From Eubacteriales bacterium (GTDB taxonomy: Bacteria > Bacillota > Clostridia > Oscillospirales > CAG-272): DNA of 64,000 nt. Both the position numbers and the translations under genes were made by a program. The stretch spans positions 2,434-66,433 of the forward strand of contig JAZQHV010000073.1 in assembly GCA_045540755.1 (NCBI GenBank). The letters are read 5' to 3'. Shown piece after piece: positions 37,540-53,183 of this stretch; positions within the stretch are counted from its first letter, which is position 1, and every line of letters starts with the position of its first letter. Below the pieces are notes generated by a model, which saw only the letters and a list, made by a program, of their open reading frames with translations, did no database searches and was not told the origin of the DNA.

Positions 37540-40128
37540 TTATAGACATTTTAGCAAATGCAAGACATCCAGTAAAGAAACACCCGTATACTGCTTTCCA
37601 ACATATGCCTTTACAAGCAGGAGCACATCCCGTACAGTAACCTTACCGTCTTGATTGAGATCCACGTATTGCAAACCTGCGAAAGAAGTACCAATCGCCT
37701 TTGCAGCAGACAAAACGAGCTCACCGTTCTTCGCCTCGACAGTATACACATGCTTTCCGGTTGCCGCATCGCTATCTGTATAGTAATATGCGTCCTGTAC
37801 AATTGCAAGCAGGTCGCCATCCCGATACAGAGCATATTCGGTTGCTTCCGCTATAGGATTAAATCGAAGTGCGACATGCTTGGGCTTGGAATCCGCCGCA
37901 AGGACAACGGTATCAAAATCTGCAATTTTTTTAACAAGCGGCATAGCATTTGCCGCAGTGGTATACGCAGTGGTGAGCGATGCGGGGTGTCCGCTGCCGT
38001 CACCGATCGTAACTCCGTTTGCAGTGACATACATCGGCTCGACAAAGGAAAAACGCTTGGAAGAAGTGTCCTCGCCGATGTATCCATGATACGCCACCCA
38101 TGTCTGCCCATCCGCATCCGTGAAATACGAGCCGTGACCGCATCCATTCACCGTGCCGGCATGCAGATCGGCTCTTGCAACCCGCGCAAATACAGGATGA
38201 TAGAGAGTTCCGCGCCCTGCAAACAGATCTTTATAATACCATCTGCTCTCCCATTCGCTATACCACAGGTCATCCTTGATCACACGGTCGGTATTCTTTT
38301 CCCAGTTGTCTGCCTGTAGCGGATCGCCTCCCTTGAAGCGCAGGAACCCAAGTGCATAATCTTCGGTCCAATAACCGCTCCCGGTGTACATGAGATACAC
38401 TTCACCCGTAGGAGCATAGACAGCCGATGCCCCCTCTACGACCTGCGGCCACCACTTGTCCGCTTCCACCGTGCTCTTATAGTATCCTCCCATCTCCCAC
38501 GGTTCGGTGGGGCGGCAGATCTCTACAGGAGTACCTGTGATCGTCCAAGGATTCTCAAACTCGGTAATATTGATCGTCTGATGGAACTCTGCGGTACCCC
38601 TTCCCTTTTCACTGACAAAGGTGAGATAGGTCTTGCCGCCGATACGAATGACCGAGGTACCGCCGCAAAGCTCGTTTTCGTTGTAACCGCCATTTGTAAA
38701 GGTCATTTTGCGCAGAACATTGACCTCGCCTGTAACGGGATCGCCCCAGCGTCCGAGCAGATCGTCTCCGTCCAAACACTTTGCAACATACTGGCGTTGA
38801 TTTGCCGTAGTACCGTCATCATAGGCAACAAACATATACCATCCGGCATTTTCCGCGCCGATCTCCTCTGCCGTAAAATACCAGATCTCCGGCGACCAAA
38901 GGTTCTCTCCAACTACAGGTGTAAGGATAACATGCGCCTGTGCCGTTTGTATATCCGCAATATTCGCCGCACAGATCAGGCTCACCGTTTTGTCACCGGT
39001 GCTGGTATAATAATAATAGCCATCGTGACAGAACACAAACGGATCGGCATTGTTGCGGCGAAGATAGTTGGTAAATGTGATCTCGCCCGACTCTGCTGCA
39101 TAAAGGTCAACATCTTCAGCATAGCAAAGAGAGGAGGTCATATCCCCCGCAAGGTCTGCGCTACCGGAAAGATCGGTCAGATGCATAAACTCGCCGCCGT
39201 TGACCGTCAGTGTATAGGTGCCGTTATGCACACCGACCGCGTCGAAAGCGACCGAGAGCATACCGTGGATCGTACCACCGTTGACGGTAATCGCCGCATC
39301 ACCCTCGTAAGTATCCGTATCCGAAAGGAAGGAGGTCAGCGCAATACCGCCGTAAAAGGTGCCACCGTTGATGACCGCAGTTATGTCGCCGCTATGGGAG
39401 TTGTTTGGGAAGGACAGATTGCCGCCGGCATCTTTTCCGATCGGCGCACAGCTTGCTAAAATCAGTTTTTCCATAAAGATGCCGCCATCCACCGTGAGTG
39501 CAATGTCATATCCGGTACTGCCGCCCCGGTTGGCACCGCCGCGAACACGCTGCCAAGTGCCGCTCTGTATATGGATCTTCGCACGCACATCAGTATAGAC
39601 TGCGCTGGAGCCTCCGATCACGGAAAGATATGTATGGCATCCTTCAGCGCGAGCCGAGATGATCCCCTCCCCCAAGGACAGGTCATGCGCACGGCCGAAA
39701 ATACCATAATACGGCGTTGCGTTGGTCGCGGAAGCGACCTGACAAAGCGTGATATGGTTAAACGCAGTCGTGCCGCCACAATAGAAGTTTGCCTTGAACT
39801 GCAACGATGCCGAATCGCTCTTTGCATAGTCCACACCGTTATATAAGGATGTGATCGTGATCGCTCCTTGGTGTGCAGGCGCTACAAATTGCGTTTCAAT
39901 GGTGTAAACATCGCTGACAACGATCGTACCGCCATCCGCACCGAGTGCGTTAAAGGCATCTGTCATGCTGCCGAGCGGAGCCGAAGGCGAAGCACCGTCA
40001 CCGCTGCCGCCGTCTGCGAGGTAAACAACATTCTCCGCAGCAAAAGCATACACGCCGAGCGCGGTCATAAGTACCAAGCATAAAACCCCAAAAAATATAT
40101 TTTTGAAAATTTGATGTTTCGGCGTCAT
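37540..40128 (-). CDS. P1: secreted protein with one beta-helix-like module, a GH43-like catalytic core, an Ig/FN3-like domain and a one-loop dockerin-like tag (862 aa)
   Basis: GGAGGAAG RBS, signal peptide ...GVYAFAAE. Module cap VVYLADGGSGDGASPSAPLGSMTDAFNALGADGGTIVV and ITITSLYNGVDY. GH43 motifs NNADPFVF, LWSPEIWYF, QVVEGASAVY, NGCGHGSYF (about 37984-39066). Confidence 0.75.
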   Translation of the reverse strand: MTPKHQIFKNIFFGVLCLVLMTALGVYAFAAENVVYLADGGSGDGASPSAPLGSMTDAFNALGADGGTIVVSDVYTIETQFVAPAHQGAITITSLYNGVDYAKSDSASLQFKANFYCGGTTAFNHITLCQVASATNATPYYGIFGRAHDLSLGEGIISARAEGCHTYLSVIGGSSAVYTDVRAKIHIQSGTWQRVRGGANRGGSTGYDIALTVDGGIFMEKLILASCAPIGKDAGGNLSFPNNSHSGDITAVINGGTFYGGIALTSFLSDTDTYEGDAAITVNGGTIHGMLSVAFDAVGVHNGTYTLTVNGGEFMHLTDLSGSADLAGDMTSSLCYAEDVDLYAAESGEITFTNYLRRNNADPFVFCHDGYYYYTSTGDKTVSLICAANIADIQTAQAHVILTPVVGENLWSPEIWYFTAEEIGAENAGWYMFVAYDDGTTANQRQYVAKCLDGDDLLGRWGDPVTGEVNVLRKMTFTNGGYNENELCGGTSVIRIGGKTYLTFVSEKGRGTAEFHQTINITEFENPWTITGTPVEICRPTEPWEMGGYYKSTVEADKWWPQVVEGASAVYAPTGEVYLMYTGSGYWTEDYALGFLRFKGGDPLQADNWEKNTDRVIKDDLWYSEWESRWYYKDLFAGRGTLYHPVFARVARADLHAGTVNGCGHGSYFTDADGQTWVAYHGYIGEDTSSKRFSFVEPMYVTANGVTIGDGSGHPASLTTAYTTAANAMPLVKKIADFDTVVLAADSKPKHVALRFNPIAEATEYALYRDGDLLAIVQDAYYYTDSDAATGKHVYTVEAKNGELVLSAAKAIGTSFAGLQYVDLNQDGKVTVRDVLLLVKAYVGKQYTGVSLLDVLHLLKCL
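37543..37665 (-). other. one-loop dockerin-like C-terminal tag of P1
   Basis: VDLNQDGKVTVRDVLLLVKAYVGKQYTGVSLLDVLHLLKCL. Confidence 0.45.
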
Positions 40129-40156
40129 GGAACTTCCTCCAATACCAATTTTCTTT

Positions 40157-40185
40157 ATTCTACCATATTAAGGGATATATGGCAA
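40157..40185 (-). promoter_or_regulatory. promoter of P1
   Basis: Minus strand: TTGCCA, 17 nt, TGgTAGAAT. Confidence 0.5.
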
Positions 40186-40200
40186 TACCGAAACATTTTG

Positions 40201-40256
40201 CAAAAAACAGATCCTCCGCTTTTACCAAAAAGGAAAAAGCGGAGGATCTGTTTTTG
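40201..40256 (-). terminator. intrinsic terminator of P2 (16-bp stem)
   Basis: ACAGATCCTCCGCTTT...AAAGCGGAGGATCTGT, with a T-run on the minus strand (complement of caaaaaa at 40201-40207). Confidence 0.8.
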
Positions 40257-40265
40257 TAATGATTT

Positions 40266-43200
40266 TTACTTGGTCAACGTTGCTGTCGAAGTTGCGCCGT
40301 CCCACGCCACCTCGGCACCGAGATTCTCGGCAACAAAGCGCACGGGGAGATAGGTGCGGCTGTTCTCGATAAACGCAGGAGAGTCCAGCGTGACCTCCGC
40401 GCCATTGATCTTTGCCGTGGTCGCACCGATCTTAATTTCCAGTTTGGTGGTCGCTGTGGTCACAGTCACCGTGCTTGTCGCGCCGTCCCAACCAACGGTT
40501 GCGCCGAGATTCTCGGCAACAAAACGCACGGGAAGCATGGTGCGACTGTTGCGGATGATGGGTGCGGCATCCAACGGCTTTACACTGCCGTTGACCAGCC
40601 CCTCCATCTTGCCGATGGTGAGCTTGACGACCGTTTTATTGCTCGGCACCGTCTTGGTCTCGGTAAAGTTTCCGATTCGCTTGCCAAGCGGAAGCGGATT
40701 GACGCTCGCCGTCCAAACGGTTTCAACAGGCGCGGGCTTTCCGCTGCCGTTTCCGACCGTAATGCCGTTTTTATCGGCCGTAAACGGCTCGATAAAGGTG
40801 TATCGGGTGCCGCCTGCCGTTGTACCGAGGTAAGCATGGTATACAACGTAGCTCTTCCCTGCCGTATCGGTAAAGAAGGAGGCGTGACCGCAACCGTTGA
40901 CCGTATCCGATTTGGACAGATACGGCGCGGTCAGTTTTTCCCAAGAGGTGATATCCTTTGGCTCGCCGCCCTTGTAGCGGAGCGCGCCGAGGCTGTAGAG
41001 CGTCGTCCAGTAGCCGCTGCCCGAATACGCGATATACACCGTGCCGTCGGGAGCGTAGATGGCAAACGGGCCCTCTACGACCTGCGGATACGTCTTATTC
41101 GCACCGCCCTTTTCCCAATCATACTCGGGAACACAGATATCGGAAGCCCCCGTAAAGGTCCACGGATTCTCAATATCCGCAATCACAAGCGACTGATAGA
41201 ACTTAACGTTATCTGTGTCCGAAGTCTCCCTGCCATATGTGGTAAAGCAGAGGAAATACTTCTTGCCGCCGATCGTAATAAAGCTTGCATCCGCGGTGCA
41301 ATCCTTGGTGTTGATAGTCGTGCCGGGGAATTCGACCTTTTGCGGTACGTTGACCTCGCCCGTCAGGGGATGTCCCCATCTGCCCATCAGATCGTCACCG
41401 TCCAGGCACTTCAGCACGTGGAGGAACTGCTTTTCGGTATTGGACATGCCTTCAGGGCTACCGCCGACGTAGAGATACCATCCCGCATGCTCCGCACCAA
41501 CGTCCTTTTCGGAGAGATAATGGATCTCGGGTGCCCAGAGCGAGGAGGAGAACTCCTGCCCGTCGGCGGGATCGTAGATGGTTGCCGCAAGGCAGTTGTC
41601 AAGATCGGCAAAGTTGGCAGTCTTCAGCAAACGCACGTTGTTGCCGCTTGTGGACATATAGTAGTACCAGCCGTCCTGCTCGTTATAGAAGAGGAAGGGG
41701 TCTGCGCCCGCGCGCAAATAATTTTGATAGGTATAGGTACCCGTGAGCGCAGCATCGAGATCGACGGCCTCGCTGACGTTCAGCCGAGTCACAAGGCTGT
41801 CGCCCTCGCGCGTATCACCGCTGATATCGACGAGATGCGAGAAGTCGCCGCCCTGAATATTGACGGTAAAGGTACCGTTTACAGTGCCTACGTTGTTCTG
41901 GCGCGGACGGATCCAGCGGCATACCGTGCCGCCGTTCAGCTCCACGACAAAATCTGCCGTAGCGGCGTTGCCGTCCTTTTCATAACCGACGGCAACGATG
42001 CCCATATCGAACGTACCGCCGTTGACAACGACCTTCAGCGTACCGCCGTCGTGGTTACCCGCAGAGGCGAGCATGAAATGGTCGCGGATACGGCCGCCGT
42101 TTACGGTCATCGTCACACTTGCGTTCTTCGGCGTATTCGAGGAGTTGCCGAGGCGGATACGCTGCCAGTCACCGCCGTTCAAAACGATATTGCAGGAAAC
42201 GTTTTCGACCGCCTCCCACGTACCGCCGAGCAGGCAAGGCAACGTTATGCCCGCATTTGCCGAGCAACGGACATCCGCGCCAATCGTCAGATCATTGTAT
42301 GCGGCGAAAATGCCGTTATAGTTCGCCTTGCAAACGAGGTGGATGCCGTCGATCACGGTCGTACCGCCGAGATAGGTGTTGCGCGGGATACCGAGATAAG
42401 CGTCTGCCGTTTCGCGGTAGTCCACGCCGTCATATACGCTGGTAATGGTGATCTCGCCCTTATGCTTCGGTGCAAGAAAGCCCGAGCCTGTGTGCGAGAA
42501 CACGGGGACGTCGTAAGGCGAGCAAATGACGATGGTACCGTCATTGTCGCCGATTGCCTGATATGCCTCGGCAAGACTGCCGCCTGCGGCGCTGTAGCTG
42601 GTGCCGTTGCCCGTGCCGCCTGCGCGCACAAAGTAGACCTTATGCGTATCTACGGCAAAGAGCGATGCCGCATCGCCGAGCGAAGCAAGGGTGAACTTGG
42701 TTTCCTCCATGCGAAGCGTGCCGCGGACGTTGTCGCCCTGCACGGTATACTTGCCGACTTTGCCGTCGAAAAGACCGAGCGCAAGTTCCTTGGTGACACC
42801 GCAAAATACGATCTCGCCGATCTCGCCGCCGTTGACGGCGATCTCTGCCGTGCCGACCGAGGTCTCGGCGGTGCGCACGGTACCGACCGTACCCGACATC
42901 ATCTCCAGACGGAAGGCATCGCCGCCGCCCGTGATGCTGTCGACCTTGGCGCCGTCGATATATACGTTACCTGCCGCAGTAATACTGTTATAACTGCCGC
43001 GATAAAGCTCTGCCGAACCGACGATGTCAAAACGGGAGTTGATATTTGCCTTTTCAGAGGCAATAAAGCAACCCTTTTCCGCATGCAAAGCGGCATTGCC
43101 GTTTACAGTAATGGAAAACTCGGTGGGTCCCGCAAGGGTGTATTTATCCTGCAACGTCAGTTTGGAATTGGCGTTTTCTGCACGGAGGAGGATCCTGTTC

Positions 43201-44402
43201 TCATGCGCGGGTTCGACGAAATCGGTCAGCGTGACCGTGCCCTGCACGATAATAACGCCATTGGTGTCCGCGGCGGTCTGCATCGCATCCTTGAAGGAAG
43301 CAGGCGTGGAAGCGGTCATGCCGTCGCCGTGTGCGCCCGCCTTGGTATAGATATAGGTGACATTTTCAGTCTCTGTAAAACCGATGCCAAACGCCGTGAT
43401 CTGCTCGGGGGTGTAGAAGCGCGCATCGTAATAAAGCGTGTCGGGTTTGTTTGCCTTGGTCGCCATTTTTTCAAGGTCGGCGGTCTGATAGCCAATATCC
43501 ATCGAACCGATCTTTGTACCCTGCATATAGACCTTGGCGGAGCCAATGACGTTGTTGACGTGTACCGCACCAACCTCGCCGCCTGTGAGATACACGGTGG
43601 CATCCTTCTCCAGTCGGCGGGTAACGTCACCGCCTGTGTAGAGCGTGCCGATCTTGCCGCCCGTAACGTTGATAACGGCGCTGTCGCTGATCTGGTTCAC
43701 TGCCGATGCACCGTAGAGCACGTCGATCTCACCGCCCAAGATGTCGATATGATGCGTGCCGTAATAGGTCGTTCCTTTCTGACCGTCGCCCATCTGGCGA
43801 GTGCCGCCGATCACGCGTGCAAAGCTGCCGCTTTGAATCGTGATGTGCGAATCCAGCGAGGTATCTGCCGTATCCGCCGGGCTCTGCCAGCCGCCGACAA
43901 GATAGATACCGGCACCACCCGTGGTAAGCGGCGTATGTACACAGCCCTCGCCAAAGGTGATATGGTTATACTGTGCGACAAAGTTGATCGAATTCGTATA
44001 GGTAAACTCGATATGCTCAAAGGTCGTGTCACCGCGCAGAATGTAGCGTTTGGAATTGCCAAACGCAAACTTTGCACCGTTTGTCTCGGCAAAGTCGGTC
44101 GTATCGTCGCGCGTTGTCACAGTGACGGGGATCTCATGCGGCTGCTCGGTAATACCGTTCGGCAGCGGATACTCGTGTGTGATAACGATCACCACTCTAT
44201 CCGCCGTGGACTCTCTTGCCGCATTGTAGCAGCGTGTCATGGTCTTAAAGGGAGTGGTGGCGCTTCTGCCGTTGTAAGCGTTGTCGTCACCAAGCTCGCC
44301 GTGGAGATAGACGTATTCAACGTCCTCTGCAGCGCCGACTGCAAGCGCAGCGCATGCAAGCAGCATACAGATTACCGTAAAACACAGAAAAAACTTTTTC
44401 AT
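40266..44402 (-). CDS. P2: secreted protein with three beta-helix-like modules, a GH43-like core and 2x Cu-amine-oxidase-N1 (stalk) repeats (1378 aa)
   Basis: Signal peptide MKKFFLCFTVICMLLACAALAVGAAE. Module caps near aa 28, 348 and 588. ITITSVYDGVDY. GH43 motifs GADPFLFY, LWAPEIHY, QVVEGPFAIY, NGCGHASFF (about 40683-41720). Confidence 0.75.
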   Translation of the reverse strand: MKKFFLCFTVICMLLACAALAVGAAEDVEYVYLHGELGDDNAYNGRSATTPFKTMTRCYNAARESTADRVVIVITHEYPLPNGITEQPHEIPVTVTTRDDTTDFAETNGAKFAFGNSKRYILRGDTTFEHIEFTYTNSINFVAQYNHITFGEGCVHTPLTTGGAGIYLVGGWQSPADTADTSLDSHITIQSGSFARVIGGTRQMGDGQKGTTYYGTHHIDILGGEIDVLYGASAVNQISDSAVINVTGGKIGTLYTGGDVTRRLEKDATVYLTGGEVGAVHVNNVIGSAKVYMQGTKIGSMDIGYQTADLEKMATKANKPDTLYYDARFYTPEQITAFGIGFTETENVTYIYTKAGAHGDGMTASTPASFKDAMQTAADTNGVIIVQGTVTLTDFVEPAHENRILLRAENANSKLTLQDKYTLAGPTEFSITVNGNAALHAEKGCFIASEKANINSRFDIVGSAELYRGSYNSITAAGNVYIDGAKVDSITGGGDAFRLEMMSGTVGTVRTAETSVGTAEIAVNGGEIGEIVFCGVTKELALGLFDGKVGKYTVQGDNVRGTLRMEETKFTLASLGDAASLFAVDTHKVYFVRAGGTGNGTSYSAAGGSLAEAYQAIGDNDGTIVICSPYDVPVFSHTGSGFLAPKHKGEITITSVYDGVDYRETADAYLGIPRNTYLGGTTVIDGIHLVCKANYNGIFAAYNDLTIGADVRCSANAGITLPCLLGGTWEAVENVSCNIVLNGGDWQRIRLGNSSNTPKNASVTMTVNGGRIRDHFMLASAGNHDGGTLKVVVNGGTFDMGIVAVGYEKDGNAATADFVVELNGGTVCRWIRPRQNNVGTVNGTFTVNIQGGDFSHLVDISGDTREGDSLVTRLNVSEAVDLDAALTGTYTYQNYLRAGADPFLFYNEQDGWYYYMSTSGNNVRLLKTANFADLDNCLAATIYDPADGQEFSSSLWAPEIHYLSEKDVGAEHAGWYLYVGGSPEGMSNTEKQFLHVLKCLDGDDLMGRWGHPLTGEVNVPQKVEFPGTTINTKDCTADASFITIGGKKYFLCFTTYGRETSDTDNVKFYQSLVIADIENPWTFTGASDICVPEYDWEKGGANKTYPQVVEGPFAIYAPDGTVYIAYSGSGYWTTLYSLGALRYKGGEPKDITSWEKLTAPYLSKSDTVNGCGHASFFTDTAGKSYVVYHAYLGTTAGGTRYTFIEPFTADKNGITVGNGSGKPAPVETVWTASVNPLPLGKRIGNFTETKTVPSNKTVVKLTIGKMEGLVNGSVKPLDAAPIIRNSRTMLPVRFVAENLGATVGWDGATSTVTVTTATTKLEIKIGATTAKINGAEVTLDSPAFIENSRTYLPVRFVAENLGAEVAWDGATSTATLTK
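40269..40631 (-). other. two Cu_amine_oxidN1-like stalk repeats (C-terminus of P2)
   Basis: ...LDAAPIIRNSRTMLPVRFVAENLGATVGWDGATSTVTV... and ...LDSPAFIENSRTYLPVRFVAENLGAEVAWDGATSTATLTK. Confidence 0.65.
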
Positions 44403-44434
44403 GCCGTGCCGTCCTTTGTCAGAATTTAAGTTCT

Positions 44435-44463
44435 ATTTTACAGCGATATAGAAATCTTTACAA
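44435..44463 (-). promoter_or_regulatory. candidate promoter of P2
   Basis: Minus strand: TTGTAA, 17 nt, TAAAAT. Confidence 0.4.
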
Positions 44464-44490
44464 TGTAGAAAACGGATCTTTTGTAAAAAT

Positions 44491-44523
44491 AAGAACAAAA
44501 GAGTGGCATTTCTGCCACTCTTT
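44491..44523 (-). terminator. intrinsic terminator of P3
   Basis: AAAGAGTGGCA-loop-TGCCACTCTTT, followed on the minus strand by TTTTGTTCTT. Confidence 0.75.
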
Positions 44524-44527
44524 GTCT

Positions 44528-47500
44528 TTATCCTTTTGCTCTTTCGCCCTGCAATGCAATGCGGGTAAAGATTACGCAAGCCTCACTTCTCTTGATAGAG
44601 TCGTTCGGGCGGTAATTGCCCGTGCCCGCGTCGCCGCCGACGATGCCCGCGTTGTACAGCTTTGCAACTGCCTTGTAGCAGGACATATCCTCGGTAACGT
44701 CGGGATTCGAGCCGCGGCGGACTGCCGTGTACTCGCTTTCGGGAAGTACGTTTGCAAAGACGATCGCCATATCACCTCTGGTGATGTTGGCATCGAGGTT
44801 TGCAAACTGACCTGCGGTGATGATACCGTTCTGTACGCAGTATTCTACGTAAGGATCGTACCACTTTTCTCCTGCGGCCGCCGCGCGGACTTCCTTTGCA
44901 TTGTAGATCTTGTGGATGTTGGTCGCCGCGGTCAGTGCCTGTGCAACCGTAAAGGTATTGTCCGGCGAGAACTTGGTGTTCGAGGTGCCGTTGGCAAGGC
45001 CGATGCGGTATGCCTTTTCCACAAAGGAGAAGAACCAGTGTGCATTCGTAACGTCGGTGAATCTGCCGTCGTACTCTCTCGTAAAGGCAAAGGTCTCCTT
45101 TGCCGCGTCCGTCTTGTCAAAGCCGACGATACGCTTTGCGATGGGCAACGGATTTGCCTTTGCGGTGTACACGGTGGAGACGGGAGCGGGATGACCCGAA
45201 CGGTTACCGATGACTACGCCCTCTTCGGTGAAGTAGTACGGCTCCACGTATGCACGGCGGTTGTTGTCGCCCTTGGGATATGCATGGTAGCAGATCCAAC
45301 CCTGACCGTCAGTGTCGGTGACGTAGGATGCGTGTCCGCAACCCGTCAGCTCTGCCGACTGCGAGAAGATGGAGGTCGGCTTCTTCGACCAGCTTGCGGG
45401 ATCGGTGGGATCGCCGTTCGGACCGCCGATATAGGTCAGCTGACCGAGCTGGTACTTCGCCGTCCAGTAACCGGAGCCGGAGTAGATGATGTAGACCTCA
45501 CCGTTCGGACCGTATACGGCGGTAGAGCCCTCAACGACCTGCGGGTGGATGCCGTCCTCACTGCCGCCCTTTTCCCAATCGTACTCGGGCTTGCAGATGA
45601 CGGTAGGCTGACCCTCAATAGTCCAGGGGTTGGTGAACTTTGCAATGTTGATGGTCTGGTAGAAGTTCATATCCGCGGTGCCGCTGGTCTCTCTGCCCAC
45701 CTCGCTGATGAAGGTGATATACTTGACACCGTTGATGGTGATGACCGAGCAACCGCCCGTCAGCTCGTTGACGTTGAAGTCGCTGTCGGGGAACTGGATC
45801 TTCTGGGGAACGTTCGGCTCACCCGTGATGGGGTGACCCCAGGGTCCCTGCAGATCGTCGGTGAGGCACTTGATGACGTGTGCACGCTGCTCGCCAAAGC
45901 CTGCGGGATCGTCCACAGCGCCGTTGGCCTCATGCCAAGCATCATCGGGCTGGCTGCCGAGGAAGCAGTACCAACCTGCATACTCCGCGCCGATCTCCTC
46001 AGCCGAGAAGTAATGGATCTCGGGCGACCAGAGATGCGCCGACCATTCGTGTCCTTTTTCGGGCTTGTAGATCTGCTTGCTCTCTGCCTTCAGCAGATCG
46101 GAAAGGTTGGGCGCCTTTGCAAGCTGCAGGCCCTTGCCTGCCGCGGTTGCAATGTAGTAGTAATAGCCGTCGTGGAAGAAGAGCCACGGGTCTGCGCCGT
46201 TGGGGCTCTCACGCACAAGGCTGGTGAAGCTGGTGGTGCCGACTACGTCCGCGTTGATGTCCACGTTTTCGCCGACCGAGAGCGTGGAGGTGATCTCGCC
46301 CTTCAGCCCCTCGGTGCCCACAAACTCAGTGGTATGCACGGGGTTCTGGTCGCGGATGATCACGTTGTAGGTACCGTTGAAGGAACCGAATTCAGTGCTG
46401 GTGGGGCGAACTCTGCCGTAAATATCTCCGTCGTTGACCTCAATGGTCATGTTACCGGTAAAGGAGTACTCGTCCTTGCTCATTGCCGCGCCGGTGATGC
46501 CGGCAACAAAGGTACCGCCGTTGACAACGAGCGTAAGGTCGCCCGTGTGCGTAGAAGCGGTGCTGAGCGTAACGGTCTCTGCAAAATAACCGTCGTTGAT
46601 GGTCATATGCACGTTGGCGTTCACGGGAATACCCGTGGAGTTGCCGAGACGGACTCTCTGCCAGTTACCGCCGTTGACGACGATCTCACAGGCAACGTCC
46701 TGTACCGCCTCATAGGTACCGCCGACAAGGCTGGGGTAATGCAGAACGGTGCCTGCATAGTCGGTCACAACGTCTGCACCGACAAACAGATCGTTATAGG
46801 CTGCAAGGATGCCGCCGTAGGACTTCTTGTTGGTGATACGCAGCCCGTCGATCACGGTGTCGCCGCCGAGATAGATGTTCTGCGTGATGATGAGGGCGGC
46901 ATCCGCGCTCTTGCGGTAGTCCACGCCGTCATATACGGAGGTAATGGTGATCTCGCCTGCGTGCTTCGGTACGATAAAGCCGGAACCGGTAGACGAGAAT
47001 ACAGGGGTTACGTAGGGGCCAACCAAAACGATGGTACCGTTGTTGTCGCCGATAGCTGCAAACGCATCCGCAAGGCTGTTGCCTGCCGCATTTGCCGAGG
47101 TACCGTTGCCGTTACCCGCATCGCTGAGGAAGTACACAACGTCGGTTCTCGCCTTGAAGATAGAGGCGGCCGCGCCGAGGGAATCTACCGTGAACTTTGC
47201 GGTGTCGAGCTGAAGCTCGCCCGTTACGTTCGTGCCCTCTACGGCATATTCCTTGACCTCACCGCCGTAGAGCAGATAGGAAAGCTCCTTTGTAACGTTA
47301 TTAAAGGTGATCTTATCGACCGTACCGCCGCTGACTGCAAGCTTTGCGGTCGCGATGGAGGAGTCGGTGGTCTTGACCGCGCCGACCTTACCGCTGAGGA
47401 TCTCCAGGGTAAATGCATCGGTGCCGCCCGTGACCGAGCCGACCTCTGCGCCGTTGATCAGCACGTAGCCCGCATCGGTAACGGTGCCGATCTTACCGGC

Positions 47501-48922
47501 ATACAGCTCTGCAGAGCCGATGACGTTGTAGGTAAAGTATGCGCCGACCGAGGCGTCGATCACCGCGGTGCCGTTTTTGGCATTGAGTGTACCCTTGCCG
47601 CTAAGGCGCATGTCGCGGAACTCGGTCTTGCCGCCGAAGGTGTAGGTACCGTCGATCTCCAGCGTTGCCGTGGAGGAAGCGCCCTCGATCACGATGGTAT
47701 TGTCGTGTGCAGGCTCAGTAAACTCGGTGAGTTTCTGCGTGCCGATCAGCACGATCACGCTCTCCGCCTCGCTTGCGATCTTGACAGCGTTCTCAAAGGA
47801 GGTGGGATCGTCCTCGCTTGCACCGGTGCCGCTTGCACCCGACTTTGCATAGACCTTGGAGATGTTTTCCACGTTGTCAAATGCCGCGCCGAAGGCAGCG
47901 ATCTCTTCCTTGGTGTAATACTGTGCGTTATAGTACAGCGTATCGGGCTTGTTTGCCTTGCGCGCATTGGTGGTCTGCTCGGCATTGGCATAGGTCATGT
48001 CCACAGAGCCGACCTTAGCGCCGTCCAGCGTCAGCGTAGCCGTGCCGATGACGTTGTTCATGTGCACGTCGCCGACGGTACCGCCGCTGAGGGTGACCGT
48101 TCCGTCGCTTTCGAGACGGCGGGTAGCATCGCCTGCCGCGTAGAGCACACCAACCTCACCGCCCGTGATGTTGATGACTGCACTGGTAGAGATCTGGTTT
48201 GCATACGAGCCACCGAACATCTTGGCGACCTTGCCGCCGCTCATTTCGATGTGGTTGGTGCCAAAGTACGTGGTACCCGAGGCGCCCGTACCCTTCTGGC
48301 GCGAGCCGCCGATAACGTATTCGAAATCGCCGCCGCGAATGGTGATGTGCGAATCCTTGGTGGTATCGAAATCGTCCAGAGGGCTCTGCCAGCCGCCGAC
48401 GATGTAAAGCACGTTTGCATCCGCATCAAGGCGCTTGAACCGAATGCCCTCGCCAAAGGTGATGTGGTTGTACTGTGCGACGAAGACAACAGACTTTGTG
48501 TACTCAAAGGTCATGTTGTCAAAGGTGGTGTCGCCGTAGAGATAATAGCGCAGACCCGAGCCGTAGACGATCTTTGCGCCCACGGTCTCCGCATAGTCGG
48601 TCGTCTCATCCTTGGTGGTGAGGACAAACTCTACGTCGGGATGCTCGATCTCCTTGACCGTCTTGGGGATAGAATAAGCGTTGGTAAAGACAAGGTATGC
48701 CTTATCATAACCTGCATTCGCACCCAAACGGCATGCCTGCGTAAAGGTTCTGACTGCATTCTCGGGCGATTCGCCGTCACTGCGGTCATTACCGGTCTCA
48801 GAGTTGACGTAGAGATAAATTGCGTCCTCTGCCGACACGGTCAGCACCGTCAGCGCCGTCAAAAGCGCCAGGGTGAAGAGGATCACCGCAAAAAAGCGGA
48901 GATTCTTGTTGGTTTTTTGCAT
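44528..48922 (-). CDS. P3: secreted protein with three beta-helix-like modules, a GH43-like core and 3x SLH domains (1464 aa)
   Basis: GAGGGA RBS. Signal peptide ...LTALTVLTVSAE. ITITSVYDGVDY. GH43 motifs NGADPWLFF, LWSPEIHYF, QVVEGSTAVY, TGCGHASYV. SLH repeats at the C-terminus. Confidence 0.75.
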   Translation of the reverse strand: MQKTNKNLRFFAVILFTLALLTALTVLTVSAEDAIYLYVNSETGNDRSDGESPENAVRTFTQACRLGANAGYDKAYLVFTNAYSIPKTVKEIEHPDVEFVLTTKDETTDYAETVGAKIVYGSGLRYYLYGDTTFDNMTFEYTKSVVFVAQYNHITFGEGIRFKRLDADANVLYIVGGWQSPLDDFDTTKDSHITIRGGDFEYVIGGSRQKGTGASGTTYFGTNHIEMSGGKVAKMFGGSYANQISTSAVINITGGEVGVLYAAGDATRRLESDGTVTLSGGTVGDVHMNNVIGTATLTLDGAKVGSVDMTYANAEQTTNARKANKPDTLYYNAQYYTKEEIAAFGAAFDNVENISKVYAKSGASGTGASEDDPTSFENAVKIASEAESVIVLIGTQKLTEFTEPAHDNTIVIEGASSTATLEIDGTYTFGGKTEFRDMRLSGKGTLNAKNGTAVIDASVGAYFTYNVIGSAELYAGKIGTVTDAGYVLINGAEVGSVTGGTDAFTLEILSGKVGAVKTTDSSIATAKLAVSGGTVDKITFNNVTKELSYLLYGGEVKEYAVEGTNVTGELQLDTAKFTVDSLGAAASIFKARTDVVYFLSDAGNGNGTSANAAGNSLADAFAAIGDNNGTIVLVGPYVTPVFSSTGSGFIVPKHAGEITITSVYDGVDYRKSADAALIITQNIYLGGDTVIDGLRITNKKSYGGILAAYNDLFVGADVVTDYAGTVLHYPSLVGGTYEAVQDVACEIVVNGGNWQRVRLGNSTGIPVNANVHMTINDGYFAETVTLSTASTHTGDLTLVVNGGTFVAGITGAAMSKDEYSFTGNMTIEVNDGDIYGRVRPTSTEFGSFNGTYNVIIRDQNPVHTTEFVGTEGLKGEITSTLSVGENVDINADVVGTTSFTSLVRESPNGADPWLFFHDGYYYYIATAAGKGLQLAKAPNLSDLLKAESKQIYKPEKGHEWSAHLWSPEIHYFSAEEIGAEYAGWYCFLGSQPDDAWHEANGAVDDPAGFGEQRAHVIKCLTDDLQGPWGHPITGEPNVPQKIQFPDSDFNVNELTGGCSVITINGVKYITFISEVGRETSGTADMNFYQTINIAKFTNPWTIEGQPTVICKPEYDWEKGGSEDGIHPQVVEGSTAVYGPNGEVYIIYSGSGYWTAKYQLGQLTYIGGPNGDPTDPASWSKKPTSIFSQSAELTGCGHASYVTDTDGQGWICYHAYPKGDNNRRAYVEPYYFTEEGVVIGNRSGHPAPVSTVYTAKANPLPIAKRIVGFDKTDAAKETFAFTREYDGRFTDVTNAHWFFSFVEKAYRIGLANGTSNTKFSPDNTFTVAQALTAATNIHKIYNAKEVRAAAAGEKWYDPYVEYCVQNGIITAGQFANLDANITRGDMAIVFANVLPESEYTAVRRGSNPDVTEDMSCYKAVAKLYNAGIVGGDAGTGNYRPNDSIKRSEACVIFTRIALQGERAKG
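44531..45061 (-). other. three SLH (S-layer homology) repeats (C-terminus of P3)
   Basis: FTDVTNAHWFFSFVEKAYRIGLANGTSNTKFSPDNTFTVAQAL; ...WYDPYVEYCVQNGIITAG...ITRGDMAIVF; NPDVTEDMSCYKAVAKLYNAGIVGGDAGTGNYRPNDSIKRSEACVIF. Confidence 0.65.
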
Positions 48923-48960
48923 AAAAGTCCCTCTCTTCTCAAAAAATTTGTTTACAATTC

Positions 48961-48989
48961 ATTATAACACACGCTTGCCGCATGTGCAA
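48961..48989 (-). promoter_or_regulatory. near-consensus promoter of P3
   Basis: Minus strand: TTGCAC, 17 nt, TGtTATAAT. About 35 nt upstream of ATG 48922. Confidence 0.6.
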
Positions 48990-49094
48990 CGAAAAAAATC
49001 CTTTCCTTCTTGTAAAATCTTTGTGTTGCCGTGCAAAAACAGATTTTCTTCAGTTGCACTTTTTGCACTTTACGATATTTTTGCAGATTATGAT

Positions 49095-49123
49095 ACAAAA
49101 AAGACCGCCGAAGCGGTCTTTTT
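49095..49123 (-). terminator. intrinsic terminator of P4
   Basis: AAAAAAGACCGC-cgaa-GCGGTCTTTTT. A T-run follows on the minus strand. Confidence 0.8.
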
Positions 49124-49124
49124 G

Positions 49125-52100
49125 TTATTTTGTAAGCGTAGCCGTACTGGTCGCACCGTCCCATGCAACTTCGGCGCCGAGGTTTTCGGCAACGAAACGC
49201 ACGGGGAGATAGGTGCGACTCTTTTCGATAAACGCGGGAGAATCCAGTTTGACCTCGGCGCCGTTGACCTTTGCCGTCGCCTTGCCGATAACGATCTCAA
49301 TAGAGGTTGTTTCGGTCTTGACGGTGACAGTGCTCGTAGTGCCATCCCAGCCGACCGTAGCCCCAAGGCTCTCGGCAACAAAGCGTACGGGAAGCATGGT
49401 ACGGGAATTGCGGATCACGGGCGCGGCATCCAGTCCGCGCGGCGCATCGTTGACATAGCCTGTGAGGTCGCCGATGGTAAGACGCACCACCGCCCTGCCT
49501 GCCGCAACCGTTTTTTCGCTGTCAAAGCCACGGATGCGCTTTGCAAGCGGAAGCGGATTGTACGCCGCTTTCTGCAACGCATTAAGCGGTGCGGGATGTC
49601 CGCTACCGTCTGCAACAACGATGCCGTTTTTGTCAGCCGTATACGGCTCTGCAAACGCAAAGCGTCCGCTGCTGGTATCTTTTCCGATATAGGCATGGTA
49701 ACATACCCATCTCTGCCCCGCCGTGTCGGTCACGTAAGAGGCGTGTCCGCAACCGTTGATCTCTGCCGATTTGTAAAGGAAGGGCTCTTTTGCCTTTTCC
49801 CACGAGGTGATCTCCAAAGGATCGCCGCCGATATATTTCAGAGTCGCAAGGCAGTATTCGGTCGTCCAGTAGCCACTGCCCGAGTAAACGATATAGACAG
49901 TGCCGTCGTCGGCATAGACTGCGGTTGCGCCCTCCACGACCTCGGGAGCACTGCCCGTTCCGCCACCCTTTTCCCACGCATACTCGGGATAGCAGATGAC
50001 CTTGGACTCGCCGACGATCGTCCACGGATTGGTCATTTCCACGATGTTGATGGTCTGGTAGAACTTTTCACCCTCGGTGTATCTGCCGCGCTCGGTGACG
50101 TAGAGCATATAGAGTTTGCCGTTTACGCGCACCTCGCTCATGCCTGCCGCCCACGTATCCGCAAAATCGGGGATCGCCTCTGCCGTTACCACCGCAGGCA
50201 CGTTCACCTCACCCGTGACGGGATGTCCCCATCTGCCAAGGAGATCGTCCCCGTCAAGACACTTGGCAACGTACATACGGTGATAAATATTCTCGCCGTT
50301 GTCGCACGCCATAAACAGATACCAGCCGCCGTTCCCCTTGCCGATCTCTTCATCCGTGTAATAGTGGATCTCGGGCGACCAGAGACTGCGCGACCACATG
50401 TGTCCGTCCTCGGGATCGTAGACAGTCTTATACTCGGCGTACTTAAGGTCACCGATGTTTGCCGCGCGGGCGAGACCGATCGTGCTACCCGTGGTCGCGG
50501 TGTAATAATAGTAGTCGTCACAATAGAACAACCACGGATCCGCGCCATTCGAGCGAATGGGATTGGTAAAAGAATAGCTGCCCGTGATCTCGGCATCGAG
50601 GTCGATATTCTCCGCCACGGCAAGCGTGGAGGTCATCGTGCCGAGCCCGTCCGCACCCACGATCTCGGTGAGATGCGCAAGGTTGCCGCCGAGAATGTTC
50701 AACGTATAGCTGCCGCTGTAAGTACCTACCGCAGAATTTGCCACCTTGATGTACCTGTGGACCGTGCCGCCCGTAACCGTAAACGTAACGTTACTGTTCA
50801 AGGCATGCGTATGATTCGAAAGCGTGGAGGCAAGGATGCCTGCACGGAACTCGCCACCGTGGATCTCTGCGGTGATGTCGCCGTCATGGGAAAGCGAACT
50901 GCCAAGCGTGACCGTCTCCATAAACGTACCGCCGTAGATCCGCAGATTTACCTTGGTATTTTTACTGCCGTCCGCCGCCGTGCCGCCGCGCACTCTCTGC
51001 CACGTGCCGCTGTGGATGGCGAGGTCGGTCGTCTTGTCCGTAAGTGCCTGCTGATTGCCGCCCATGACCGAAAGATAGGTCTCACTGACGGTGTCTGCGA
51101 TCGAGGTGATATTCTCTCCGAGCACCAGCGGATGTGCATTTGCATAGATGGAAACGTATTTTCCACCCGCGCGAAGCGTGATATCGCAAAACTCGGTCTC
51201 GCCGCCGCAGTAGAAGTTCTTGGCAAGCACCAGCTCCGCGCCGTTCGTCACGCGGTAATCCACGCTTTCGTAGACGCTGGTAATGGTAATCTTCTTCTGA
51301 TTCACGCCCATGTTAAACGCAGTGGCAACCGTGTACTTTCCGCATATAACGATCTTGCCGCCGCTCTGTGCAAGCGCGGCGTAGGCATCCACAAGCGAAG
51401 AGGAGGGCGAGCTTGCGCTCATACCGCTGCCTTTCGCACCGTCGGCAAGGAAGAATACCCGTTCACCGCCTCTGCCGAAGAGGTCTGCCGCTTCGCCGAG
51501 GCTTTCCGCGGTGAAATACCGTTCGTCGAGCGTGAGCGTTCCCTTTACGGTTTCGCCCGCGATCTCAAACGCGCCGATCGAACCGCCGACAAGCGTGCAG
51601 GAAAGCGCCTCGGTGATATTGCGGAAAACGACCTTCTCCACACTGCCGCCGCCGACGGTCAGGGCAAAGCGTTTTGCCGCCGCGGAATCCACCGTGCCTA
51701 CTTTGCCGCCGTGGATCTCAACGGTCGCATCCGTGCCACCGTCAATGCTACCGACCGTCGCGCCCGAAACCAGAACGTGCTTTGCCGCGATGATCTCGTC
51801 ATACGTACCCGTGTACAGATGTGCACTGCCCGAGACACGGACGTTCAGCGGTGTTGCCGTTTTTTCTACGATGAGACAGCCGTCTTTCGCATCGAAAGCG
51901 CCACTGACCGTTACGTTTTGGAAAGCAGTCTCGCCCGAAAGCGTGTAGGTGCCGCCGATCTCCAGCGTTGCGCCGCTATCCATACCGGTCACGGTAATGC
52001 AGTTTGCATGCACAGGCTCGGTAACGTCCTGTACCCGCACTCTGCCGATGAGGGTGATGACCGCATCCTTCTCCGCCGCCATCTGCAAAGCGGTTGCAAA

Positions 52101-53183
52101 CGAGGTGGGGGTATTCTCGCTTCTGCCGTCGCCGTCGGCACCGGCTTTGACGTAGATCACGGCGTTGTTCTGCACGGAATCAAAGCCGTTGATCGCCGCA
52201 ATTTCCGCTACGGTATAATACAGTGCATCATAGGTGAGCGATTTTACCGACTTTGCCTTGACGTGCAGTTCGTCCACCTCGCTGTTATAGTAGGAAACGT
52301 CTACGGTGCCGACCTTGGTGCCGAGCAGCTGCACGTCGGCATTGCCAATGACGTTGTTGACGTGCAATGCCCCGATCTCACCGCCTGTAAGGGTGACCGT
52401 TGCCGTACCGTTCAGACGGCGGGAAAGGTCGCCGCCAACGTGGAAATTCTTCACCTTGCCGCCCGTCATGGTAAGAACGGCGTTTCGGCTCCAGTTATGC
52501 TGCACGGAAGCGCCGTAAAGATTCTCGATCTCGCCGCCCGCAACCGTGATATAATGCGTGCCTTGCAGTTCAAGACCGCTTCCCTCCGCCGCCTTTTGAC
52601 GAGAACCGCCGATGACGTTGAGGAACGAGCCGCTTTGGATGGTGATGTGCGAGTCAAGCTCGGTCGCCTTGCCGTCCTCGGGGCTCTGCCAGCCGCCGAC
52701 CACGTACAGACCGCTCACGGTGTTATCGAGGCGCACGGTATTGACACCGCCACCGAAAGTAATGCGGTTATACTGCGCCACGCAGTTGAGCGTGCCGCTG
52801 TACTCGACCGTGATATTCTCAAAAGCGGTATCGCCTAAAAGTACGTACCGCAGATTTTTTCCAAAAGTGACTTTTGCACCGCTTGCGCCGTAATCGGTCA
52901 CATCGTCCTTTGTCGTAACCACAAACGGAACCGTATGCGGGATCTCGTTTACGGTCGCGGGAAACGAATACGCATTCGTGATGACGATATACGCCTTGTC
53001 CGCGCCCGATTCCTCCGCCAGACGGCACGCCTGCGTAAAGGTCTTGACCGCCGCCACCGCCGACAAACCGTTTGCGCCGTCATCACCGTTTTCGGAATTA
53101 ACGTAAATATACGCATGTTCAGCCGCAAATGCCGTGAGTGTCAGCATGGTGAGTACCAGTAAAAAAACAAATACTTTTTTCAT
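49125..53183 (-). CDS. P4: secreted protein with three beta-helix-like modules, a GH43-like core and 2x Cu-amine-oxidase-N1 (stalk) repeats (1352 aa)
   Basis: Start MKKVFVFLLVL at 53183 (GAGGTG RBS), signal peptide ...TLTAFAAE. ITITSVYESVDY. GH43 motifs NGADPWLFY, LWSPEIHYY, EVVEGATAVY, NGCGHASYV. Confidence 0.75.
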   Translation of the reverse strand: MKKVFVFLLVLTMLTLTAFAAEHAYIYVNSENGDDGANGLSAVAAVKTFTQACRLAEESGADKAYIVITNAYSFPATVNEIPHTVPFVVTTKDDVTDYGASGAKVTFGKNLRYVLLGDTAFENITVEYSGTLNCVAQYNRITFGGGVNTVRLDNTVSGLYVVGGWQSPEDGKATELDSHITIQSGSFLNVIGGSRQKAAEGSGLELQGTHYITVAGGEIENLYGASVQHNWSRNAVLTMTGGKVKNFHVGGDLSRRLNGTATVTLTGGEIGALHVNNVIGNADVQLLGTKVGTVDVSYYNSEVDELHVKAKSVKSLTYDALYYTVAEIAAINGFDSVQNNAVIYVKAGADGDGRSENTPTSFATALQMAAEKDAVITLIGRVRVQDVTEPVHANCITVTGMDSGATLEIGGTYTLSGETAFQNVTVSGAFDAKDGCLIVEKTATPLNVRVSGSAHLYTGTYDEIIAAKHVLVSGATVGSIDGGTDATVEIHGGKVGTVDSAAAKRFALTVGGGSVEKVVFRNITEALSCTLVGGSIGAFEIAGETVKGTLTLDERYFTAESLGEAADLFGRGGERVFFLADGAKGSGMSASSPSSSLVDAYAALAQSGGKIVICGKYTVATAFNMGVNQKKITITSVYESVDYRVTNGAELVLAKNFYCGGETEFCDITLRAGGKYVSIYANAHPLVLGENITSIADTVSETYLSVMGGNQQALTDKTTDLAIHSGTWQRVRGGTAADGSKNTKVNLRIYGGTFMETVTLGSSLSHDGDITAEIHGGEFRAGILASTLSNHTHALNSNVTFTVTGGTVHRYIKVANSAVGTYSGSYTLNILGGNLAHLTEIVGADGLGTMTSTLAVAENIDLDAEITGSYSFTNPIRSNGADPWLFYCDDYYYYTATTGSTIGLARAANIGDLKYAEYKTVYDPEDGHMWSRSLWSPEIHYYTDEEIGKGNGGWYLFMACDNGENIYHRMYVAKCLDGDDLLGRWGHPVTGEVNVPAVVTAEAIPDFADTWAAGMSEVRVNGKLYMLYVTERGRYTEGEKFYQTINIVEMTNPWTIVGESKVICYPEYAWEKGGGTGSAPEVVEGATAVYADDGTVYIVYSGSGYWTTEYCLATLKYIGGDPLEITSWEKAKEPFLYKSAEINGCGHASYVTDTAGQRWVCYHAYIGKDTSSGRFAFAEPYTADKNGIVVADGSGHPAPLNALQKAAYNPLPLAKRIRGFDSEKTVAAGRAVVRLTIGDLTGYVNDAPRGLDAAPVIRNSRTMLPVRFVAESLGATVGWDGTTSTVTVKTETTSIEIVIGKATAKVNGAEVKLDSPAFIEKSRTYLPVRFVAENLGAEVAWDGATSTATLTK
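49128..49493 (-). other. two Cu_amine_oxidN1-like stalk repeats (C-terminus of P4)
   Basis: ...LDAAPVIRNSRTMLPVRFVAESLGATVGWDGTTSTVTV... and ...LDSPAFIEKSRTYLPVRFVAENLGAEVAWDGATSTATLTK. Confidence 0.65.

Follow-up and report, generated by a model that had tools for sequence, protein, structure and literature searches.

A tandem array of four diverged, differently tethered GH43 proteins with solenoid-like modules in an uncultured gut Clostridia genome

We describe four minus-strand genes (P1–P4) of an uncultured gut Clostridia bacterium, all of which code for large secreted GH43 proteins. As a whole, the array is probably best explained as coding for four diverged, tethered, Sec-secreted GH43 exo-glycosidases equipped with solenoid modules. 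We propose that (i) the four genes, which are anciently diverged, would be independently transcribed, and their products exported by the Sec route, (ii) each product follows the plan of one or three predicted beta-solenoid modules, a GH43 domain (predicted five-bladed propeller) and a C-terminal tether, (iii) the tether is an SLH region, which would bind secondary cell-wall polymer, in P3, a Cu_amine_oxidN1 domain (also present in OlpC) in P2 and P4, and a one-loop dockerin-like tag in P1, (iv) rigid packing onto the propeller is predicted for the module that adjoins it, and the two outer modules would point away from the cell and (v) the paralogues would differ in specificity and surface address, anchors having apparently been exchanged between lineages.

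The gene models were examined within the window, i.e. the whole stretch of 64 000 nucleotides analysed here. ORF calls reproduced the four genes and the lengths given in an initial annotation of this DNA (862, 1378, 1464 and 1352 aa; Table 1). For P4 the 1352 aa product was preferred because ATG 53195 falls within the AGGTG ribosome-binding site, whereas ATG 53183 lies downstream of it. Each gene has, as had been claimed, its own signal peptide and promoter-like element: classical signal peptides were read from the sequence at all four N-termini (AFA-AEN, VGA-AED, VSA-EDA and AFA-AEH), and promoter-like sites with 9–10 matches out of 12 lie in all four short gaps upstream of P1–P4. No enrichment of such sites was found across the whole region (14 observed versus 10.1 ± 3.2 expected). 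The terminator hairpins previously ascribed to P2, P3 and P4 are all present. An Rfam scan of the window gave zero matches at gathering thresholds, and an exact look-up of P2 in a public gene index returned no record.

Table 1. Features of the P1–P4 array and of P5 (positions in the window)
Feature	Residues	Coordinates	Strand	Remarks
P1 ORF		37540-40128	-	862 aa
P1 promoter-like site (5')		40157-40185	-	TTGCCA-17-TAGAAT, extended -10
P1 module, one copy	31-350	39079-40038	-	
P1 GH43 core	~351-745	37894-39078	-	
P1 Ig-like stretch and one-loop dockerin-like tail	746-862		-	ends in KCL
P2 ORF		40266-44402	-	1378 aa
P2 promoter-like site (5')		44435-44463	-	TTGTAA-17-TAAAAT
P2 module m1		43470-44318	-	
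P2 module m2		42648-43370	-	
P2 module m3		41733-42647	-	
P2 GH43 core		40653-41732	-	
P2 Cu_amine_oxidN1	1270-1375	40278-40595	-	179.7 bits
P2 terminator hairpin (3')		40201-40256	-	followed by T run; read directly; long loop, beyond scanner
P3 ORF		44528-48922	-	1464 aa
P3 promoter-like site (5')		48961-48988	-	TGCACA-16-TATAAT, extended -10
P3 module m1		47972-48826	-	
P3 module m2		47144-47863	-	
P3 module m3		46232-47143	-	
P3 GH43 core		45098-46231	-	
P3 three SLH repeats (PF00395)	1287-1464	44531-45064	-	64.6 bits, threshold 20.8
P3 terminator hairpin (3')		44498-44523	-	11 pairs
P4 ORF		49125-53195	-	preferred start gives 49125-53183, 1352 aa
P4 promoter-like site (5')		53214-53243	-	TGGAAA-18-TATAAT, extended -10
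P4 module m1		52269-53117	-	
P4 module m2		51468-52169	-	
P4 module m3		50574-51467	-	
P4 GH43 core		49506-50573	-	
P4 Cu_amine_oxidN1		49137-49454	-	127.9 bits
P4 terminator hairpin (3')		49098-49123	-	11 pairs
Predicted general base Asp (ADP motif)	P4 D886	50538-50540	-	P1 D362, P2 D901, P3 D911
Predicted general acid Glu (VVEG motif)	P4 E1088	49932-49934	-	P1 E565, P2 E1110, P3 E1131
Canonical pKa-modulator Asp position	P4 G1018	50142-50144	-	P1 G490, P3 G1057
Canonical pKa-modulator Asp position	P2 D1038	41289-41291	-	
Clade-specific Glu, candidate relocated carboxylate	P4 E1035	50091-50093	-	end of next strand, same hairpin; P1 E507, P3 E1074; P2 T1055
P5 ORF		56219-60709	+	1496 aa; four module copies, VanY, dockerin
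P5 four modules		56288-59818	+	
P5 VanY D-Ala-D-Ala carboxypeptidase domain		59876-60295	+	
P5 complete type I dockerin		60542-60700	+	

GH43 cores and their catalytic residues

All four proteins had been assigned a GH43-like core with conserved catalytic signatures, and this assignment held. With a Pfam cut-off of 32.2 bits, the GH43 (PF04616) scores were 46.1, 68.2, 69.0 and 76.9, and the motifs reported as common to the four cores (ADP[FW], LW[SA]PEI, VVEG and GCGH[AG]S) were found in every one of them. The best PDB sequence matches of the cores were GH43_26 exo-alpha-1,5-L-arabinofuranosidases (E about 1e-22). An AlphaFold model of P4 comprising m3 and the GH43 core (pLDDT 91.5, pTM 0.89) was searched with Foldseek; the top ten matches (E 1e-18 to 1e-20) include characterised GH43_26 alpha-L-arabinofuranosidases with solved crystal structures, namely 3akf/3aki (SaAraf43A), 9nxg/9nxh/9nxj (AtAbf43C) and 5m8e/5m8b, and TMt was about 0.8 against target chains consisting of the GH43 domain alone (e.g. 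9nxj). According to this model, the cores are predicted to adopt the GH43 five-bladed beta-propeller fold.

The GH43_26 enzymes SaAraf43A (3AKF) and AtAbf43C (9NXG), which are among the best matches in both sequence and fold, have in common with P1–P4 the five-bladed propeller and the ADP base, WAPE, EG acid and GxGH motifs; AtAbf43C is also secreted and bears a dockerin. However, P1–P4 are without CBM42 and have one to three N-terminal solenoid modules instead, and their tethers are of SLH or Cu_amine_oxidN1 type and not a full dockerin. In addition, the cores are ~25% identical to characterised GH43_26 arabinofuranosidases, so that transfer of substrate from these enzymes is weak; characterised GH43_26 enzymes show 49–63% identity with AtAbf43C (PMC12493170). 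Judging from the nearest relatives, the P1–P4 enzymes would act at the cell surface on plant glycans, cleaving off terminal furanosyl sugars that are most likely alpha-L-arabinofuranose.

The Asp of ADP[FW] and the Glu of VVEG align in all four proteins with the catalytic pair (D and E) in 3AKF and 9NXG, and both residues are strictly conserved across the clade. Among the four paralogues, the pKa-modulator Asp (equivalent to D283 of AtAbf43C) is kept only in P2; it is replaced by Gly in P1, P3 and P4, a departure from GH43_26 that extends to 141 of 169 clade members. Given that the D283A mutation abolished activity of AtAbf43C (PMC12493170), P2 alone might be a working hydrolase, with the dead GH43 domains of P1, P3 and P4 serving at the surface as lectins or to capture glycans that bear furanosides. 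We consider this unlikely, in view of the clade-wide retention of general base and general acid, of the low dN/dS of the GH43 core (0.05–0.09) and of the behaviour of a clade-specific Glu located at the end of the next strand in the same hairpin. Presence of this Glu covaries with loss of the Asp: the Gly/Glu pair was observed in 128 of 150 cases, and the P2 lineage has D together with T or A. This pattern suggests rewiring of the active site rather than decay, and P1, P3 and P4 may well be active without the canonical Asp.

The initial annotation had depicted a single enzymatic chassis sent to three surface addresses. A GH43 core is indeed shared, but the sameness was overstated: the four lineages are ancient and, since their catalytic triads differ and their cores have diverged, they are better described as four diverged enzymes than as one chassis.

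The N-terminal module

Counting with a local HMM gave one module in P1 and three in each of P2, P3 and P4, the same numbers of Gly-rich modules as had been placed before the core. Their description as parallel-beta-helix-like stood in part: they are Gly-rich and the AlphaFold model (pLDDT 88.8) is confidently all-beta and solenoid-like, with short strands and one N-terminal helix, but a Pfam Beta_helix match was absent. The module (~300 aa) had no Pfam or NCBIfam match at E < 0.1 and 0 matches at E ≤ 10 in a PDB profile search; these searches thus gave no described family, in agreement with the claim that no function had been described for it. With Foldseek nothing significant was found in the PDB (best E 0.7, TM ≤ 0.30, most weak matches being beta-helix or beta-solenoid proteins) or in BFVD (best E 2.8e-3, TMq 0.44). 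None of ten family members was named at source (0/10).

A word-seeded homologue search (9 matches) had made the module look rare, a reading rejected by an exhaustive profile search that recovered 2763 cluster representatives, with up to 19 matched stretches in one protein. Elsewhere the module is joined to VanY (14 of the top 148 module matches), GDSL lipases, metallo-beta-lactamase, GDPD, M14 carboxypeptidase, Metallophos and other domains. A fifth module-bearing gene, P5, lies 3 kb beyond the coordinates covered by the initial annotation, where it was missed. The module is a promiscuous unit and not part of a GH43-specific chassis. As it is also carried by peptidoglycan-type enzymes, plant-glycan binding is not required of it.

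The partners VanY (including that of P5), M14, GDPD and Metallophos raise the prospect that the module marks cell-envelope enzymes acting on the walls of the bacterium itself or of its neighbours, in which case the GH43 domains would serve to trim wall polysaccharides that contain Araf or Galf; a GH43 beta-D-galactofuranosidase of Aspergillus niger is described in a preprint (bioRxiv 10.1101/2021.10.27.466152). This seems rather improbable, however, as the nearest structures include characterised plant-arabinan GH43_26 exo-arabinofuranosidases, the wider window is rich in genes for plant-glycan enzymes (two GH78, GH106 and a CE15-like esterase; UxuA is also encoded) and the carriers are fibre-associated Clostridia of the herbivore and human gut. 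In the neighbourhood of the array, no sugar transporter or arabinose-catabolism gene adjoins it.

Weak Foldseek neighbours of the module include rhamnogalacturonan lyase, pectin methylesterase and inulin lyase folds, as well as tapirins and Cthe_2159. The first three would be compatible with modules that are themselves lyase- or esterase-like catalysts, the proteins then being bifunctional. That is very improbable: none of these matches is significant, conservation over 405 modules falls on Gly, hydrophobic and Thr/Ser positions with no catalytic-looking constellation (the sole frequent acid, D99, is present in just 66%), and constraint is weakest in m1 and m2 (dN/dS 0.09–0.26), m3 being constrained as strongly as the GH43 core. 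Tapirins and Cthe_2159 bind polysaccharide and are not known to be enzymes. Tapirins (Caldicellulosiruptor, 6N2B/6N2C) and Cthe_2159 (4PHB/4PEU) are secreted beta-solenoids of plant-degrading Firmicutes, a fold class also predicted for the module; however, the similarity is not significant (E > 2, TM ≤ 0.28) and the module is a repeated unit within enzymes, not a stand-alone adhesin. The outer modules are most likely rods that bind glycans or particles or that extend the reach of the enzymes, and not catalysts.

A bolder reading, which we offer only tentatively, is that the module constitutes a new and very widespread Firmicutes accessory family of surface enzymes (CBM- or adhesin-like), one copy of which would be an obligate rigid partner of GH43, and that in addition the clade forms a new GH43 subfamily whose pKa-modulating carboxylate would have moved from the Asp to the neighbouring-strand Glu. 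If this relocation is true, the P2 lineage would have reverted to the ancestral state and both versions of the triad would coexist in one locus.

Tethers, age and distribution of the array

Two of the three anchor families initially proposed, SLH and Cu_amine_oxidN1, were confirmed by Pfam, and the third, dockerin, was not. The Cu_amine_oxidN1 matches of P2 and P4 (PF07833, threshold 24.2 bits) cover profile positions 2–107 of 108; the family was therefore correctly named, but the two repeats seen in each protein are an internal duplication within a single PF07833 domain. SLH is likewise the right family for P3, where two of the three repeats pass Pfam and the third was recognised by eye (aa ~1400–1450). 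The single loop described for the P1 tail was seen (DxNxDG), but the tail scored 16.7–20.3 bits with Dockerin_1 (PF00404), below the threshold of 22.9, and matched half of the profile only; a cohesin partner for P1 is therefore conjecture. A half dockerin below the threshold (16.9–19.8 bits) was likewise seen in three related single-module tails of other MAGs, and full dockerins scored 38.6 bits in P5 and 45 bits in L061.

Core and anchor phylogenies, whose comparison had been suggested as a check, are incongruent (neighbour-joining trees without support values). The P4 core shares 74–77% identity with proteins of five other genomes that are anchored by SLH, while its anchor is closest to that of P2 (81–83% protein identity), the P2 and P4 cores being 52% identical. 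Among cores that are close relatives, the anchor thus appears to change from SLH to Cu_amine_oxidN1 or the reverse, indicating swapping. The idea that the P2 and P4 anchors recently underwent gene conversion was rejected because their third-codon identity is 0.40–0.47 in spite of the high protein identity.

The array had been judged old and maintained, and several measures agree. The paralogues are 38–47% identical over their full length (about 52% in the cores), third-codon identity between them is 0.3–0.55 throughout, anchors included, with synonymous sites saturated, and dN/dS is 0.07–0.18 for P1–P4, showing purifying selection. Each paralogue branches in a separate deep clade and has orthologues elsewhere among gut Clostridia genomes, and a related genome (L002, an independent assembly) has the array in identical gene order. 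That the array arose by recent amplification, or is a single gene multiplied by an assembly artefact, is suggested by the tandem arrangement and nothing else; it is refuted by this divergence, by dN/dS and by the separate orthologues in identical order.

The architecture of three modules, GH43 and SLH or Cu_amine_oxidN1 was found at 74 loci in gut Clostridia MAGs, several of them with mixed-anchor tandem arrays. Anchor diversification within one locus, of which the initial annotation knew no described case, therefore recurs in other genomes, and the array design is a family trait shared among uncultured gut Clostridia, not a one-off. Cel5I of R. cellulolyticum provides a precedent for an SLH-anchored clostridial enzyme (PMC4976890), and the cell-surface protein OlpC/ScaG provides one for Cu_amine_oxidN1, as it carries a PF07833 domain (PMC3413522); searching the literature for an anchoring role of PF07833 yielded mentions of OlpC/ScaG only. 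Together with cellulosomal dockerin enzymes, these clostridial display systems use equivalent tether classes (SLH, dockerin-type and copper-amine-oxidase-like). In the array, by contrast, alternative tethers, apparently swapped, are found on paralogues of one family within one tandem array, and PF07833 is C-terminal on the enzyme instead of being on a cohesin-bearing anchor protein.

Implications for surface display in gut Clostridia

In size and degree of duplication, these proteins rank among the foremost secreted proteins of this group of uncultured gut Clostridia, which are associated with fibre; multiple MAGs each hold several of the genes. Their dominant module is without a family model and their catalytic domain is distant from every characterised GH43. 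Knowledge of the substrate, of what the module does and of the ligand of Cu_amine_oxidN1 would fill a gap in our view of how Gram-positive gut bacteria display glycan-degrading enzymes, and could reveal a new GH43 subfamily as well as a new family resembling CBMs. With an Asp-type site (P2) beside Gly/Glu-type sites (P1, P3 and P4), the array provides a natural test of how plastic the GH43 triad is.

Organization of the array and its surface anchors

Four consecutive ORFs on the minus strand, spaced by 125–202 bp, encode proteins of 862, 1378, 1464 and 1356 amino acids (P1 to P4) according to the ORF scan; for P4, the 1352 residues proposed in the initial annotation are to be preferred since the ATG at 53183 comes after an AGGTG ribosome-binding site. 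A classical signal peptide can be read at the N-terminus of each protein. In every intergenic gap, the upstream gene has a terminator hairpin and the downstream gene a sigma-70-like site, and a fourth promoter-like site lies upstream of P4, an arrangement in which P1–P4 look like individual transcription units. The long plus-strand ORFs opposite P2–P4 gave no domain matches and are most likely shadow ORFs to which the codon composition of P2–P4 gives rise. The genes on either side of the array are fhs and queT. Directly 5' of queT, in the intergenic region that also holds the P4 promoter, a sub-threshold match to the preQ1 riboswitch was noted (53314–53361, plus strand; 25 bits versus a gathering score of 39; E = 0.0035 when 271 bases were searched).

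Coordinates of the array and of other features of the window
Feature	Position	Strand	Remark
P1	37540-40128	-	GH43 core
P2	40266-44402	-	GH43 core
P3	44528-48922	-	GH43 core
P4	49125-53183	-	GH43 core
Terminator hairpin of P2	40201-40256		gap P2/P1
Terminator hairpin of P3	44498-44523		gap P3/P2
Terminator hairpin of P4	49098-49123		gap P4/P3
ORFs opposite P2, P3, P4	40836-44429, 44522-48967, 48873-52838	+	1197-1481 aa
QueT transporter gene	53369-53845	+	
P5, giant secreted protein	56219-60709	+	four modules, VanY carboxypeptidase, complete type I dockerin
Two GH78 alpha-L-rhamnosidases and one GH106-like rhamnosidase	6522-10823, 11912-16015, 16037-19141	-	tandem
UxuA	28955-30052		
CE15-like glucuronyl esterase	31197-32261		

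All four proteins pass the Pfam GH43 threshold. P2 and P4 end with one full, internally duplicated Cu_amine_oxidN1 domain (CuAO) and P3 with SLH repeats. For the one-loop dockerin-like tag initially assigned to P1, the Dockerin_1 match is half-length and below threshold, and the tails of P1 and of three relatives scanned score 17–20 bits against a cut-off of 22.9. The same type of tail is common to eight single-module relatives in five other MAGs. Its parts are an Ig-like stretch of ~70 amino acids, a single DxNxDG loop and the accompanying helix, a loopless second helix and, at the C-terminus, the motif [KRN]C[ILV] (in P1, KCL), to which one residue is sometimes added. The tag is conserved and dockerin-like, yet by the criterion of the dockerin family itself it does not qualify as a dockerin.

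The window also encodes two GH78 enzymes (1400-aa paralogues, 52% identical, with F5/8-type C domains), one GH106, a CE15-like esterase, UxuA and a sugar ABC transporter, a content which fits a plant-glycan degrader and says nothing specific about the substrate of the array.

The N-terminal module

The N-terminal stretches of P1–P4 (300–870 residues) have no match in Pfam or NCBIfam. With a local HMM, one copy of a ~300-aa module was found in P1, three (m1 to m3, m3 being next to GH43) in each of P2, P3 and P4, and four in P5, a protein absent from the initial annotation, in which they precede a D-Ala-D-Ala carboxypeptidase (VanY) domain. P5 recurs as a 97%-identical copy, again next to AraC and M20, in a Logan assembly (L001); in the related genome L002 (see below), no AraC-M20-P5 block separates queT from the ABC gene.

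The AlphaFold model of the module (21-sequence alignment) is confident (pLDDT 88.8, pTM 0.89) and displays a short N-terminal helix followed by ~20 short strands. Neither PDB nor BFVD yielded a significant Foldseek neighbour, and a profile search of PDB sequences gave no match. The weak PDB matches are in majority beta-helix or beta-solenoid proteins. The label 'beta-helix-like' is reasonable; assignment to the pectin-lyase fold is not established. When 1.84 billion representatives were searched exhaustively with the profile, 2763 proteins matched at E ≤ 1e-3 and 638 of them at E ≤ 1e-30, a single protein containing as many as 19 matched stretches. Among the best 148 matches, the partner is the GH43 clade of the array in 68 and VanY in 14; others include GDSL lipases, metallo-beta-lactamase, ADP-ribosylglycohydrolase, Metallophos, M14, GDPD, S9 and BspA-type LRR, and many of these 148 proteins end with a dockerin, SLH or CuAO tail. 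The positions conserved over 405 copies are Gly, hydrophobic or Thr/Ser, and we therefore read the module as a promiscuous accessory unit that is probably non-catalytic. Proteins made of two or three modules and a CuAO tail, devoid of a catalytic domain, occur in three loci of related genomes (L004, 13300–15441; L031, 15104–17248; L073, 2–2191), in the first two inside GH43 arrays, so that modules and tether appear able to stand alone.

The GH43 core and its catalytic residues

The best PDB sequence matches of the core are GH43_26 exo-alpha-1,5-L-arabinofuranosidases, including AtAbf43C (9NXG) and SaAraf43A (3AKF), at E ~1e-22 and ~25% identity. Ten more characterised GH43_26 enzymes are each 49–63% identical to AtAbf43C (PMC12493170); judged by these identities, the clade of the array is well outside the characterised enzymes. 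The model of P4 m3 plus GH43 (pLDDT 91.5, pTM 0.89) has GH43_26 arabinofuranosidase crystal structures among its top ten Foldseek matches (TMt ~0.8 against GH43-only chains); other GH43 structures come next, with E-values at least five orders of magnitude worse. The confidence of this model favours a fixed arrangement in which m3 packs against the propeller.

The general-base Asp and the general-acid Glu are conserved, unlike the pKa-modulating Asp that completes the triad. Its equivalent in AtAbf43C is D283, and D283A is inactive (PMC12493170). Gly occupies the position in P1 (G490), P3 (G1057), P4 (G1018) and 141 of 169 clade members; Asp is confined to P2 (D1038) and a small number of other members. 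Most Gly-type proteins have a Glu further along this hairpin, where its next strand ends (P1 E507, P3 E1074, P4 E1035), the G/E combination being found in 128 of 150 sequences, and P2 has Thr there. With the two crystal-structure sequences as root of the tree, the P2 lineage branches from within the G/E sequences. According to the DSSP string of the P4 model, E1035 lies opposite A1016 of the neighbouring strand and shares a face with residue 1018. It is plausible, though not proven, that the pKa-modulating carboxylate has been relocated to this Glu. Alternatively, three of the four paralogues could be inactive binders; however, base and acid are strictly conserved and core dN/dS is 0.05–0.09.

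Age, distribution and probable exchange of anchors

The paralogues are 38–47% identical overall (~52% in trimmed cores), with third-codon identities of 0.3–0.55 everywhere, and each forms its own deep clade including orthologues from other genomes. The order QueT-P4-P3-P2-P1 is repeated in an independent assembly (GCA_054293845.1, locus L002). Orthologue dN/dS is 0.07–0.18 for P1–P4, constraint being strongest in m3, GH43 and anchor and weakest in m2. On the same contig pair, dS to L002 is uneven (~0.20 over the first 286 codons of P1, comparing 37540–40128 with L002 14275–15132; 1.0–1.3 for P2–P4), a pattern suggestive of recombination, or of alleles having been replaced, inside the array.

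Scanning a single genome for each species gave 74 loci, nearly all in uncultured Eubacteriales, Oscillospiraceae or Clostridia MAGs (gut of goat, roe deer, rabbit and Hadza humans); the sole cultured carrier found was Paenibacillus hemerocallicola. The predominant architecture is three modules, GH43 and an SLH, CuAO or no tail. Several genomes contain many copies, and in several the genes form tandem arrays whose anchors are mixed or that include P1-like single-module members; mixed anchors within one locus are therefore a lineage trait rather than something peculiar to this window. In ten loci (L058–L063, L065, L066, L069 and L071), a three-module GH43 gene, which in some cases has an SLH tail itself, is directly followed by a separate 660–730-aa ORF with SLH repeats, which may be a partner protein or, where the GH43 gene is tailless, part of a split gene.

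Anchor swapping, for which a comparison of cores and anchors had been proposed, is indicated for P4. Its core is 84% identical to the L002 orthologue (CuAO), 74–77% to SLH-anchored proteins from five other genomes and 52% to P2; its anchor is 81% identical to that of P2 and 67–68% to the CuAO anchors of nearer core relatives. SLH and CuAO tips are interleaved in the P4 clade of the core tree (the trees being neighbour-joining, without support values). Together these comparisons support an exchange of tethers between lineages; synonymous saturation shows that it did not take place recently.

The four-gene array is thus confirmed (ORFs, terminators, promoter-like sites, GH43 and the anchors of P2–P4). 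Its interpretation, a beta-helix and GH43 chassis on three surface anchors, is supported in part. The array belongs to a known kind, the surface-tethered clostridial glycoside hydrolases, and offers two leads: a module family without a model and an atypical GH43 triad.
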